From positions 110,732,001 to 110,796,000 of the forward strand of contig OZ024742.1 in NCBI GenBank assembly GCA_964016885.1: a stretch of DNA of 64,000 bases. Reading direction: 5' to 3'. Source of the stretch: Eledone cirrhosa. Its lineage: Eukaryota. Below the pieces are notes generated by a model. It was not told the origin of the DNA, did no database searches, and saw only the letters and a program-made list of their open reading frames with translations. Within the stretch, counting starts at the first letter, position 1. Each line of letters starts with the position of its first letter. Shown here piece after piece: positions 3,381 through 51,610 of the stretch. The position numbers were made by a program, and so were the translations under genes.

Positions 3381-4059
3381 ATGGAAAAAACGAAATTTCA
3401 TTTCTCACTCATAGTACGGCTGATACTTAAATATAAGTATGTATACGTACATACATATATGTATACAGACGTACAGTAGTATGTATATACATACATACAT
3501 GCACACATATATATATGTACGTTGGGTTTACCGAACATTTATTATAATGTTCGGTTTGTTTGTAAACAAACAGCCCGAATTAAGCCGTACAGTGTTCAGC
3601 AACCATCGTTGCCCTTTTGTTCAACACTGACAAAGAAACGATGAACTAGTTTCTAGCTTATTAGCTGTCATCAGCACCGTATACCTTCCTCTCAATCGAT
3701 TGAACATTTTAAAGTATATTCTTTACTTATGCATATTAACGGCTGAGCAGCCTAATTTGCATATCGAGTGAGTTATTCGGCCGGGCGTACCGAAAACGAT
3801 AGATGGAAAAAATGAAATTTCATTTCTCACTCTTAGTTCGGCTGAAACTTAAATATGTCAGTGTTGAACAAAAGGGCAACGATGTTTGCCGGACACTGTA
3901 TGGCTTAATTCGGGCTGTTTGTTTACAAACAAACCGAACATTATAATAAATGTTCGGTAAACCCATACGTACATATATATATGTGTGCATGTATGTATGT
4001 ATACACATACTACTGTACGTCTGTATACATATATGAATATACGTATATATACTTATATT
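3381..4059 (-). mobile_element. Retrozyme-like non-coding HHR element, family R1 copy a (422-bp unit, 54-bp direct redundancy, inverted arm)
   Basis: Direct repeats 3381-3434 and 3803-3856. 3857-4059 is an inverted copy of 3430-3632. HHR at 3638-3680, no ORF, TA-rich flanks, second copy at 8562-8997. Confidence 0.8.
3638..3680 (-). ncRNA. Minimal type I hammerhead ribozyme
   Basis: ACGGTG-CTGATGA-CAGCTAATAAGCTA-GAAA-CTAG-TT-CATCGT; 6-bp stem I and self-complementary ACTAGT stem III. Confidence 0.85.
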
Positions 4060-7000
4060 CATATAAATATATATATGTGTGTATGTGAGTGTGTGTGTGT
4101 GTGTGTGTGTATTGAGAGAGTGGGTGAGAAGAAAAGAGTGAGAGAGATGGAATGAGAGAGGAAGAGAGTGAGAGATAGATAGGATGTGAGTGAATATCTG
4201 CAGTACAACGACCGGTAAGACCACAATTTGTGTAGTACTCGAAACACGGTAGAATATATGTGTGTGTGCATGTGTTTTGGTATGAGGGTGTGTTTGTACG
4301 TGTATATTTGTGTGTAGGTTTAGGTGTGTTGTTGTCAGGGAACAGTTCAATATTTTATGTTTATGTTAATTCAAATATATGCACATTTTACTACTAGAAT
4401 TTTCGATTTATTTTTCTTCATTTCATATTTCACTTAGAAAAATAACATGTATAAACATAGTTTTGTTTGCGCTAAAAATGTCTCAACAAGAATTTGTCAA
4501 TAAGCGCAAATTACAAAATTACTAAATTGCAAAATAATTTAATAAACCAAATCTTTGATAGATTATTTCGAGACTTGGTGTATTTAATTATGAAATTAAA
4601 TGAATGTAAGAATTTTAATATGGAAATCCCCATAGATAATTACAATTAAGAAAGAACAACAAACCCTCTGTATAATCTTTTAAAATACCATACGCGTAAT
4701 TGTTAGATGTTACAGAAGGTAATTTATTTACATTATATGACTTTTCTACGATGTAATTGGTATTTACATTAAATTATTTTTAAAACACACCACTCACACA
4801 CACACATACATATTCTGTTTAATGTGCGTCAATAACATCTAATAAAAGAGGGTTTTAGTATATATTAAGTTTGCCTCCGGATGAAGCTATGAATGATTTT
4901 AATATATAAATGCATAAATATAACAGGTAACATTTATTAAAAATGTATTACTATCAACATGGGAAAACAAATTAAAAATAACCACACAAATACATGTATA
5001 TAATATCAATGAGAGTAAAATGAATCTTTGAGTCGCAGAGATTGTAAGTCAGTATTGAAACATTCATCCAATCAGCACACACATATGCACATGCATGCAC
5101 ATATACGCACACATGCTTGTACACACGTATACGTACGTATTTATTCAAGATACGCATACACGCTCATACATGTGTACATGAGATAAATTTAATGTAACTA
5201 TAAATACGCGTTTTGAATTTTAAAACTCTTTGTAAAAGGTGTAAATATATTTTCCACTATCCTCTACCACACAGAAAACATGATTTCTCTTACCCGTTTC
5301 AGGTTGTATAGTCTCCTTATCATAAGATAATAACCCCTGCAGTCCTTCCCACACAGGGGAATTGAGAGTATCACTATTTATCTCAAGTAAAGAGTATCTC
5401 ATAAGAACTGATGCGGAGGTGTCCATCACTACGTCGTACAGCCTACGGAGGCTCTCCGACGTAGTGATGGGCCACCTTCATATCAATTCTCTGTTTATAT
5501 GTTGATGTAACCCGGTAAGGATTACTAAACTAAATCTTTTATGTTCATTACATCTGATGACGTCACTGATTGCCTTGTATCTGGTAGGCTCTATATCACT
5601 TATTTTTAATCTTTTTAATTCTATGAGGCACTGAAGACCACATATAAAATTCCTCGACGAGCTCTTCGTATGGAAATAATAATTATGAACAAATATATTG
5701 CCTAACTTGTTTTATTGATTATGCATGCGCACTACAAGATTATGAATAACACATTTTCAAGACATTCAAACAATAACATATCTTCTTTAACGGATTAAAT
5801 TATATTTCTAAAAATCTGCTGTGTACCTAAATACTACCTAATATACAACAGTGAACAGCGTTGCAACGCTTGAAAACTATCGCTCTGTATGTGTATGGTG
5901 TGTGTTTTAGGGTAGTGTGGCTAACGAGTTTGCATCGATTACACAGCGTGGTGTTTTGAGCGAAATCCAGGTAACATAGCCCTTAGCTGCTGAACGAATT
6001 GTAAGTTCAATTTGATAACTGGAAACAGTAAGGTCATATGTACGTAGATACATATATTTACATTTGGTCGAAAGAAAAAGAAAAAAAACTGCTTTTTCAG
6101 TGAATTTATTTGTGATATTTGTTTTGCATAATATGTCAAACATTTCCCTGTCAGACTTGCAATCAGAAAGGTATTGAAATAGGGATTGAACCGTTCAATA
6201 TATCTAACAACACAACTCTTCTCCAACTGGAATATAAAATAATTATAAACGTATTTGTTGCACTGTGTATTTCTCTTTCTAACACCCTTATTCTCTCTTT
6301 CTATATATATTTCAGTGCGTTTATGTCTTGTGTGAACATATTTACTTAGATATGCTGTTATATAATTAAAATTGTTTAAAATATAAATTTTCTAAAGCGT
6401 TTTTCAATTATTATAATACAATCATATTAAATATTACTTATCATGCAATACTCTCTCGCTCGCCTTTGAGTCAAATTCTGGGAGAAATACAGGATATAGC
6501 TTGAAAGCAACATAAATAATTGCATAGAATATGAGAAATATCACCTCATAGACACATACACAAGGTTGGGTTTATATTTAGTTAGGCCAACGAAGTTCGT
6601 TCTCTGTCATTTTAATCATCTTTTCATCACAAATATGAAGCAATAAACATAATTCCTATGATTATGTCCGCTTACTTTCCATTATTTCATCTCTTCTCTG
6701 CTATTTTTTAATACATTCTTTTGATGTTTCTTGCTCGCTTTCATTCACTAACTCAGTAGCAGTGTCTATTGGTTTCTATGTCTGTTTCTCTCTCTCCCTC
6801 ACTCTATTTTACTATCACCACCTTCCTCCTTTCATCTATTTCGCCACCTCTCTTTCTTTGAAGCAAGAACCAATCTTGTAGCAACATCGACGGAAATATA
6901 AACCCGGTCGTTGCTATCAGACTTGACTTGACATAATGAAGAACCGTTTATGACAGGGGATCAACTTGGCAATTTATTCTCGAAATAGAGATAAATGTCA

Positions 7001-7904
7001 ATGTTTAATTACTTTGTTAGACACAACAACAACATAAACAACAAACGAGATAACCAAAACATATAAAAAATGTCAATAAGTAAAAAGAAAACGAATGTAA
7101 GAAAATGTGAGTTAAGGAAAAATAGAAAATGGAAGAGAGAAATTGTGAAACTCATCATATTAATATGGAGAGAAAAAATAACTTATATTTCTTATTTCCA
7201 TCGCTGGTCGTCGATTTAAATATAATATAGCGTAAGCTGAAGATTATTTCAGAATATATATTGAAGTGGTGGCTCTAAGGAATGTGATATCCGCGAGGAA
7301 GATTTGAGGTTTTCCGTAATGACAGGTTATTATCAGAACTTCAAAGTGCTCAAGCGTAAAAAATGTTTTATATGGAAGAATTATCAGCAGTAACAAAGGA
7401 ACCATAGATAAGGTAGGGGAATGGTGAAAAAAAAAAGTATCGGAGCAGTTTGCCCAGTATATTTGTGTAAGAAAAATATAATTTTGGCAATGGAAAATAA
7501 GACAGATTTGAATAATATTTCAGAAGTTCAGACAATACGTCTGTGTTTTAAAAACATAATAGTCACAATGTTTTAATTATATATAAATAGATAATATATA
7601 CGTAAATATGAACATACACATACATACGTTAATACATACACATACTCACGTATACACACATATATATACTTATATGCATATGCACACACAGATACACAAA
7701 TATAAATATATATATATATATATATATAGGGAGAGAGAAAGAAAAAGAAAGATCTCTCTCTCTCTCTCTCTCTCTCTCTCTCTCTCTCTCTCTCTCTATA
7801 TATATATATATATATATATATATATATATATATATATAGAGAGAGAGAGAGAGAGAGAGAGAGTGAGAGAGAGAGGAAGATAAAGACACATAAGCATACA
7901 TACA

Positions 7905-50549: not shown

Positions 50550-50858
50550 TTGTGTATTTGAGAATTCATCGGTTTCCAATCAAGTAGCGTGAGGAAATTT
50601 GGCTTAGTGTTAGAGATCATTACCTCCCTCACCCAGCATGCCTCTTCGTCAGTCTCCCGCGTTTCTCAGTGATAGAGGTCATTACCACCCTCCCCCGCAT
50701 GGCTGGTTACTGCTGCTAGTATATATATATATATATATATATATATATATATATATATATATATATATATATATATTTATGTGTGTGTGTATATGTGTGT
50801 GTGTATGTATGTATATATATATGTGTGTATATGTATAAGTATCTATGTATATATATAT

Positions 50859-51610
50859 ATAATAAAGTATGAATTCCTACGTGTAAAAAATACATATAGG
50901 GAAAAAAGTATTATCCACCCATATGCCAATGTGGTTCTATGGCGGGTTAATAAATTAACAAGCCGGAACATATAAAATCGATGTCTAGCAAATAGAGAAA
51001 AAGTTTTAAAATAAATAAAAAAAAATTCGCTGTACTTACTACATGTGCCTTTACCGCGGTTTCATGCTCCAGAATAAACGGAAAATCCAAGCGGATTTCC
51101 ATTGAGAAGGGACCAATCTTGAGTAGGCTCTATATGCTAGACCTCGATTTCATATGTTCTGGCTTGTTAATTTATTAACCCGCCATAGAACCACATTGGC
51201 ATACGGTTGGATAATACTTGTTTCCCTATATGTATTTTTTACATGTAGGAATTCATACTTTATTATTATCGATCTCCCCCTATAAAATTTTGGCTGTTTG
51301 GACTGATGCTATTTCTAGTGGCAGGACATTGACCTGCCCACCCTGCCTTTTGTCTTTGCACACGGCACCAGACAGAATTATTTCTTTCATCATCCGCTCT
51401 CATTTGGTAATGGTTTTGTATGGCGGCAATTTTATATTCTCCGAGGGAGAAGAGCCTTCTGAAGATTGGTCCCTTCTCAATGGAAATCCGCTTGGATTTT
51501 CCGTTTATTCTGGAGCATGAAACCGCGGTAAAGGCACATATAGTAAGTACAGCGAATTTTTTTTAATTTATTTAAAAACTTTTTCTCTATTTGCTAGACC
51601 TCGATTTTAT
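50859..51610 (+). mobile_element. Retrozyme-like non-coding HHR element, family R3 (457-bp unit, ~26-bp redundancy, inverted arm spanning the unit junction)
   Basis: CTCTATWTGCTAGACCTCGATTT at 51128 and 51585; inverted arm 50859-51128; HHR 51454-51535; no real ORF; (TA)n flanks. Confidence 0.85.
51454..51535 (+). ncRNA. Type I hammerhead ribozyme (canonical core)
   Basis: GCCTT-CTGAAGA-[branched stem II]-GAAA-C-CGCG-G-TA-AAGGC; perfect 5-bp stem I. Confidence 0.88.

Follow-up and report, generated by a model that had tools for sequence, protein, structure and literature searches.

Non-coding hammerhead families of Eledone cirrhosa with insertion junctions of the Penelope type

The closest described relatives of the elements analyzed here are the animal retrozymes without long terminal repeats (non-LTR retrozymes), for which mobilization by Penelope-like elements (PLEs) is proposed (PMC7229834). 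According to the available part of a 2020 review, animal retrozymes carry no conserved motif that reveals the mobilizing retrotransposon (PMC7761336), and Li, Clavereau and Pollet have argued that retrozymes are non-autonomous PLE derivatives (bioRxiv 10.64898/2026.07.22.740005). Here, we describe three families of hammerhead-bearing, non-coding units, R1, R2 and R3, found in a 64,000-nt stretch of the 3.0-Gb genome of Eledone cirrhosa (contig OZ024742.1; G000:C3:110732001-110796000; hereafter the window), which is AT-rich and contains abundant (TA)n as well as several PLE fragments. With the retrozymes of PMC7229834, as far as these are described in the available sections, R1-R3 share the non-coding tandem organization, a type I hammerhead, a GC content below 50%, a self-paired fold and the lack of LTRs. 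They differ in their unit length of 420-650 nt, in occurring mostly as dispersed inserts of 0.5-1.5 units, and in having inverted arms along with 3' ends fixed at two positions; nowhere does the text of PMC7229834 use the words tail, inverted or microsatellite. Circular RNA has been demonstrated for the published retrozymes, whereas R1-R3 are known here from DNA alone.

The second point of reference is the endonuclease-containing (EN+) PLEs, whose tail, inverted pseudo-LTR (pLTR) and (TA)n targeting have been described (PMC11167929, PMC8557442, PMC3846280). The protein of the Anolis PLE cleaves AT-rich target DNA on both strands and extends each of them, and the tail is delimited by two positions inside the RNA from which reverse transcription begins (PMC11167929). 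Trans-mobilization via pLTRs has been inferred in a rotifer (PMC3846280). Like EN+ PLEs (PMC11167929), R1-R3 have two start sites downstream of the hammerhead, a tail on one inverted arm and 5' truncation, and they share (TA)n targets with the Hydra clade (PMC8557442). In contrast to them, R1-R3 have no open reading frame (ORF), and their tail measures 51-111 nt; it is 30-40 nt long in published elements, and PLEs of the present genome have 40-134 nt. The non-autonomous Chlamys PLEs of green algae, such as MRC1, are likewise ORF-less, with pLTRs and head-to-tail multimers; unlike in R1-R3, their 3' ends as a rule resemble those of their helper, and hammerheads are missing from most of them (PMC8557442, in the part available).

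The preprint of Li, Clavereau and Pollet reaches the same conclusion of dependence for families of 51 to 972 bp. Its evidence, mainly from vertebrates, consists of co-occurrence and pLTR homology, whereas for R1-R3 it is the junction architecture, with no pLTR homology found; insertion junctions are not discussed in the available main text of the preprint. Neither junction-level evidence for retrozymes nor a strict count of one arm per site was found in the literature searched, which covered few subscription papers. R1-R3 are new families of an already published class; for this class, dependence on PLEs had been proposed before, and the junction evidence was not found in print.

Three unrelated units and their hammerheads

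The DNA covered amounts to ~991 kb and comprises the window, 370 kb of contiguous flank and the loci retrieved by searches; window and flank together form an unselected, contiguous region of 434 kb. A first look at the genome yielded 1858 candidates for R1, 2192 for R2, 1454 for R3 and 677 for R4, a fourth candidate unit. Per family, 40 candidates were scored and the 30 loci nearest to the window copy were excised. The R1 search query favored copies longer than one unit, and the R3 arm set takes in some copies of a sister family, R3c. The features of R1-R3 in the window are the following.

3377..3856, minus strand: R1a main arm, 1.14 units of 422 nt; 3' end at site B (+267 from the cut), adjoining (TA)n
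3638..3680, minus strand: R1a type I hammerhead; core CUGAUGA at 3674-3668, loop III ACUAGU, predicted GUU cut between 3644 and 3643
3856..4059, plus strand: R1a inverted arm, unit positions 12-214; 3' end at site A (~+216)
8562..8995, minus strand: R1b single arm, 1.03 units; 3' end at site B by (TA)n; hammerhead core at 8857
13512..14098, minus strand: R2 inverted arm, 0.90 unit; 3' end at site A (+290); hammerhead core at 13870
14096..14922, plus strand: R2 main arm, 1.26 units of 654 nt; 3' end near site B (+380 to +392)
14468..14546, plus strand: R2 hammerhead; core CUGACGA at 14473, stem II region of 49 nt, loop III ACCAUGGU, predicted cut after 14540
50859..51131, minus strand: R3 inverted arm; 3' end at site B (+193), adjoining (TA)n
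51128..51612, plus strand: R3 main arm, 1.06 units; 3' end at site A (+82), adjoining (TA)n
51454..51535, plus strand: R3 hammerhead; core CUGAAGA at 51459, stem II region of 53 nt, loop III ACCGCGGU, predicted cut after 51530

Comparing the window with itself gave direct-repeat periods of 422 (3377/3799), 654 (14096/14750), 457 (51128/51585) and 614 (9654/10268), with inverted arms adjoining. Together with pairwise comparison, these periods agree with the initial annotation, which had described R1 (~422, two copies), R2 (654) and R3 (457) as unrelated, ORF-less units. The R3 unit measures 457 nt in the window and 487 nt in the family (L073). R1, R2 and R3 have no mutual sequence similarity, the longest stop-free frames of the circular units span 68, 66 and 101 codons, respectively, and tblastn of PLE proteins against the units gave no credible match. 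Their GC content is 0.35-0.38. The direct redundancy beyond one unit was also found as described (R1a ~58 nt, R1b ~12 nt, R2 ~171 nt, R3 ~30 nt), as were the (TA)n at each 3' end of R1a, R1b, R2 and R3 and the staggered inverted arms of R1a, R2 and R3; R1b is a single arm.

Hammerheads were located with a scan for the type I motif with a palindromic loop III, which returned 10 matches in the window and 0 in every one of 8 block shuffles used as control. The matches include R1a, R1b, R2 (both arms) and R3, in keeping with the initial annotation, and the loop III palindromes read, as DNA, ACTAGT in R1, ACCATGGT in R2 and ACCGCGGT in R3. In R1b, the GAAA of the hammerhead has decayed to CAAA. Rfam gave 0 matches at the gathering score in the window, and no hammerhead family occurs among the 150 of 274 E-value matches listed; because of this, the hammerhead call for R1-R3 rests on the motif scan and on covariation. 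Circular folds, each compared with 25 shuffles, gave z values of -10.6 for R1, -2.9 for R2 and -2.0 and -4.0 for R3, the fold of the R3 window copy being weak.

Covariation comes from the sister family R3c, which is ~79% identical to R3, 486 nt long, ORF-less and tandem, and is present at 20 loci. Its 3' end lies at +82, as in R3, and its circular fold reaches a z of -7.3. Loop III changes from ACCGCGGT in R3 to ACCGTACGGT and ACCGATCGGT in R3c and is palindromic in each, while stems I and II changed on both sides, with two-sided change in 13 of 68 predicted pairs. A relative of R1 at L120 (67% identity, 466-nt tandem) has the sequence of stems I and II replaced and the core kept. Across sister families at 20-33% divergence, unit length, start site and hammerhead pairing are retained, and these comparisons indicate that the hammerhead is under selection. 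Copies within bursts of R1-R3 differ by ~4-6%.

Insertion junctions and the link to Penelope-like elements

The arms of R1-R3 end at two sites per family, numbered here from the predicted hammerhead cut. The 3' ends lie at +216 or +267 in R1 (63 of 78 arms), at +290 or +392 in R2 (43 of 49) and at +82 or +193 in R3 (43 of 53), adding up to 149 of 180 arm ends at the two sites of their family, with a chance expectation of 6-9%. All these sites are downstream of the cut, the sequences end in AT or TA, and in most cases (TA)n then follows. Only the 5' ends vary. The initial annotation had asked whether copies are circular permutations; with 3' ends fixed at two sites, they are not freely permuted. 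As for target-site duplications of more than 4 bp, the ends lie within (TA)n, which masks duplications.

The two sites are distributed between the arms in a strict manner. Inverted pairs number 22 in R1, 20 in R2 and 15 in R3, and among those that are classifiable, meaning that both ends lie at a site, one arm ends at each site in 16 of 17, 14 of 15 and 11 of 11, respectively (41/43). Pairs with an end elsewhere number 5, 5 and 4. The same arrangement was found in H2, a Hydra-type PLE of this genome with a unit of 3544 nt, whose 3' ends lie at +20 and +103 (63 of 74 arms) and in which all 15 classifiable pairs, out of 18, have one arm per site. A few-base overlap where the arms meet is usual in R1-R3 and PLEs alike. 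The two-site pattern of R1-R3 is the PLE 'tail', and the 'Penelope signature' is real and more regular than previously stated, because the two fixed sites and the paired arms match the two-start tail of PMC11167929.

One alternative, that R1-R3 are plain truncated ends of reverse transcriptase (RT)-encoding PLEs with a redundancy private to these loci, finds support in this genome in the very high frequency of stumps of PLE ends, and it does hold for R4. For R1-R3, we regard it as very improbable. Other genomic copies continue head-to-tail beyond one unit, reaching 3.4 units in one subfamily; 51 arms of R1, 22 of R2 and 22 of R3 run beyond site B and round the whole unit to their own 3' end, and the 78 free 5' ends have no upstream extension in common. 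Arms extend up to 2.5 units in R1, 1.87 in R2 and 1.85 in R3, and exceed one unit in 48 of 80, 16 of 50 and 16 of 53 cases. Of the R1 elements, 19 are unselected; an arm exceeds one unit in 12 of these, and 11 carry an inverted arm. The density of R1 in the unselected region (10 elements per 434 kb) suggests by extrapolation that the copy number may reach tens of thousands genome-wide.

Linkage to PLE genes points in the same direction. A same-strand PLE protein match within 1.6 kb upstream of the hammerhead was found in 5/52 cases for R1, 1/24 for R2, 1/30 for R3 and 0/6 for R3c, with (TA)n intervening in all except one (L011). No hammerhead sampled from R1-R3 or R3c has an uninterrupted same-strand PLE ORF upstream, save for the head-to-head neighbor at L011, whereas the hammerheads of the Hydra families H1, H3 and H4 do connect to PLE ORFs. 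The unit listed earlier as R4 behaves differently.

9450..10458, plus strand: R4, 5'-truncated 3' untranslated region (UTR) of a Neptune-type PLE (9846-10458), after an inverted pair of its last ~190 nt

R4 is a PLE 3' UTR, because 8 of 29 other copies come after the C-terminus of a Neptune-type RT/GIY-YIG ORF, 69-355 nt upstream and on the same strand. Most of the 17 copies that reach the 5' limit of the window copy have upstream sequence in common. The window copy holds only the half-motif GAAACCGGTA, and its circular fold (z -0.1) does not surpass that of shuffles; with the ORF linkage, this rules R4 out as a retrozyme. Members of its family at L093, L094, L101 and L108 have a hammerhead-like motif with core UUGAUAA and a weak stem I, partly lost in the window copy. 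The initial annotation's claim of PLE-type insertion of hammerhead multimers is supported for R1-R3 by the 3' ends, the pairing and the lack of ORF linkage, and fails for R4, and its own alternative, that a unit is a mere pLTR with private redundancy, applies to R4 and does not apply to R1-R3 in the sample.

The junctions also bear on a spread at the DNA level, by unequal crossing-over or rolling-circle DNA transposition, with the hammerhead as a passenger. Local tandem arrays exist at L021, L195, L112 and L120, and local tandem amplification of pLTRs has been proposed (bioRxiv 10.64898/2026.07.22.740005). This explanation is rendered extremely improbable by features that R1-R3 have in common with the PLE H2, namely 3' ends at fixed sites, truncation at variable 5' points, insertion into (TA)n and arms paired between sites A and B, as well as by the predominance of dispersed inserts of 0.5-1.5 units. 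Our preferred interpretation, at a probability of about 0.75, is that R1-R3 are independent non-LTR retrozyme families and that the RT/GIY-YIG protein encoded by an EN+ PLE copies them in trans. Beyond R1-R3, tandem hammerhead families with periods of 310 nt (L112:194-1124, L128:3535-4041, L191:843-1463), 466 nt (L120:100-1032) and 456-468 nt (L195:2902-3826) are, by their sequence features, further retrozymes in this genome.

Template RNA and a proposed course of insertion

The arms of a locus carry information on the template from which they were copied. Minority variants are common to the arms and laps of one locus at values of 44 and 21 for R1, 26 and 22 for R2 and 9 and 9 for R3, compared with 8.6 and 3.6, 5.8 and 4.1, and 1.8 and 2.1 between loci, respectively. 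Sharing of minority variants by arms and laps is 4-6 times commoner within a locus than between loci, the pairs not being independent. This pattern indicates that a locus drew its arms and laps from a single template lineage; later gene conversion could contribute to the sharing. A pile-up of 5' ends at the cut site was not found (R2 1/50, R3 3/53, R1 11/80 with p 0.07); therefore, the arms were not copied from a cut linear monomer up to its terminus. The DNA ends identify the template of R1-R3 as a circle or an uncleaved multimer. Of the 'circles or concatemers' of the initial annotation, the head-to-tail continuity stands, as seen in DNA only. A further cluster of R1 5' ends at unit positions 121-138 was dropped as a biological signal, since the edge of the query and a stretch of simple repeats lie at the same place.

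Between these two templates, we lean slightly toward a circular RNA, by analogy with published retrozymes and from the selection on the motif. The competing account invokes the same PLE insertion, but on a linear transcript of partial tandem structure that stays uncleaved, or on cut monomers linked when the RT jumps between them; a circle plays no part, and tandems arise again by the same process that generates PLE tandems. It has a substantial chance of being right, short of even. In its favor, hammerhead cleavage is dispensable for the Anolis PLE in vitro and no reads start at the cut site (PMC11167929), R3 has a preferred 5' end, the autonomous H2 likewise occurs in tandems of more than two units (L171-L173), and arms are mostly shorter than 1.5 units. 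Yet a linear-only cycle would be expected only to shorten the unit, while length and hammerhead pairing are kept over 20-33% divergence; jumping between cut monomers might predict the 5' pile-up that is missing at the cut; and circles are documented for other animal retrozymes (PMC7229834).

Several observations weigh against retrozymes that are copied in trans through circular RNA. The Anolis PLE prefers uncleaved RNA in vitro (PMC11167929), and arms long enough for two complete hammerheads are few (R1 2/70, R2 3/42, R3 7/46). Distances within loci are significantly smaller than between loci only for R1 and for the laps of R3c, again with non-independent pairs. The 5' ends of R3 concentrate at unit positions 281-297 of the first and second lap (9/46, p ~0.003), inside a hairpin and mostly TA-flanked (L063, L066, L070, L073, L075, L078, L079, L084, L089); such a cluster suits a fixed-start linear RNA as well as a pause on a circle. 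The fold strength of R1 owes partly to a TA-rich palindromic stretch, and the net covariation term of the R3 alignment is unfavorable (+0.32), 2 of its 9 rows being partly foreign sequence. R1-R3 show no similarity beyond simple repeats to 12 PLE UTR pieces of this genome, an incomplete library. Being biased toward the 30 nearest of 1454-2192 candidates in each family, the sample would miss an ORF-bearing parent that is rare or diverged.

With R1-R3 taken as retrozymes copied in trans, the following course would account for the insertions. A copy longer than one unit would be transcribed, and its hammerheads, probably acting as dimers via the palindromic loop III, would excise a monomer that a host ligase may circularize. 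Dimeric cleavage is known from retrozymes (PMC7229834, PMC7761336, in the parts available), and cleavage was reported for only 1 of 9 Xenopus hammerhead dimers (bioRxiv 10.64898/2026.07.22.740005). The PLE protein would then nick both strands of (TA)n, and reverse transcription would start inside the RNA at two sites; the sites are taken from the DNA ends and the chemistry from the Anolis PLE (PMC11167929). The cDNA would cross the cut site, often exceed one unit and halt at a variable point, as is seen in the DNA. Finally, two cDNAs of the same lineage, one per start site, would be joined head-to-head by short overlaps, giving the staggered inverted arms; the pairing and the common variants are observed, and the joining is proposed to explain them. 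In its most specific form, which we consider unlikely, each insertion would derive from one circular RNA, read by a dimer of the PLE protein from both start sites, one per strand. A circular template would in that case account for pLTR, tail and inverted arm of Penelope elements alike, and these retrozymes would be recognized by their structure and not by kinship with the pLTR of a helper.

Candidate helpers, origin and significance

PLEs of several kinds are present around R1-R3, and those in the window are staggered by ~40-134 nt. The comparators used here are listed below.

1071..2945, plus strand: truncated Hydra-type PLE; EN ORF at 1431-1832, hammerheads at 2846 (+) and 1257 (-), inverted arm staggered by ~90 nt
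10496..11676, no strand assigned: palindromic stump of the Hydra-type family H1; stem II region of 114 nt in its hammerheads, ends at ~+73 and +207
56958..60072, minus strand: 5'-truncated Neptune-type PLE; RT and GIY-YIG ORF at 58167-59726, staggered inverted arm, (TA)n ends
L171-L173 (G000:C2:320546001-320563000, C2:11104001-11114000) and L128:4783-8112: H2 loci

By eye, translations of H1 and H2 (L136, L128, H2) show an RWK-like motif, DKT, a CxCX5C linker, and CxxC and CxH around E and N, with no CCHH. Matched to the available description in PMC8557442, these motifs place H1 and H2 in the Hydra clade. The best 40 matches of H2 are all 100% identical over 211 nt, and H2 looks very young, younger than the bursts of R1-R3. 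Hydra-type elements are natural helper candidates because their clade targets (TA)n (PMC8557442); Neptune-type and other PLEs here also terminate in (TA)n.

The ancestry of R1-R3 is a separate matter, compatible with copying in trans. R1-R3 might be internal-deletion derivatives, with fused pLTRs, of autonomous PLEs outside the sample, an idea that we hold as possible but tentative. It would be in keeping with Xenopus, in which 24 of 57 retrozyme families matched known elements and 21 of the 22 matched elements were PLEs, at their pLTRs (bioRxiv 10.64898/2026.07.22.740005), and with the layout of a hammerhead followed by two start sites, which is that of a pLTR. Against it, R1-R3 match neither the 12 UTR pieces nor the H2 unit and loci, apart from a lead in L128, in which an R3-like piece by the H2 ORF turned out to belong to the ORF-less tandem family R3c. 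As this similarity occurs in L128 alone of 33 loci, H2 was ruled out as the parent of R3.

Two chimeric loci, each a single case, bring the families into contact with PLEs. At L128:4557-4783, a short R3c palindrome abuts the 5' end of an H2 copy, by template switch or nested insertion. At L011:749-1938 (L211), an R1 arm stands head-to-head with a PLE that is 5'-truncated and belongs to another clade, and each of the two outer ends lies in (TA)n; this R1/PLE chimera is possibly one mixed insertion, or two successive ones. The L011 PLE family was ruled out as the parent of R1, given its different hammerhead and the lack of similarity.

Further observations concern the PLEs themselves. H1 forms near-perfect palindromes (99%) at window positions 10630-11676 and 62407-62831, with hammerhead stem II regions of 114-116 nt, and L136 (H1) holds two ORFs head-to-head, one of 830 codons. 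H2 has a hammerhead-like motif with core UUGAGAA (U3/A8 in place of C3/G8) and a long palindromic stem III. In H2, 45 of 105 5' ends lie inside the hammerhead, 25-53 nt upstream of the predicted cut, a pattern not found in R1-R3; part of these may be alignment ends of older subfamilies. Within the window, an inverted pair at 48555-49501, absent from the initial annotation, has hammerheads at 48923 (-) and 49123 (+) with loop III AUAUAUAU; these resemble the hammerhead ending the L011 PLE, and the pair is probably a PLE stump. Another inverted pair, at 39126-40754, has GAAAC-palindrome half-motifs, and a hammerhead-like match with a 91-nt stem II region lies at 54189, near GIY-YIG fragments. 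The window also holds an RT ORF at 19138-20241 and a transposase fragment at 29681-30178, which we take from their motifs to be RTE-like and mariner-like, respectively.

The insertion junctions of R1-R3 indicate the mobilizer of these retrozymes through a two-start-site tail, described as unique to PLEs, and through one arm per site as in H2. The role of the hammerhead and of the circle in PLE replication becomes directly testable in this genome, because the units are only 420-650 nt long and the genome contains very young, intact-looking PLE copies. If one circle is read from both sites, R1-R3 would offer natural substrates, reduced to a minimum, for the complete insertion reaction of PLEs.

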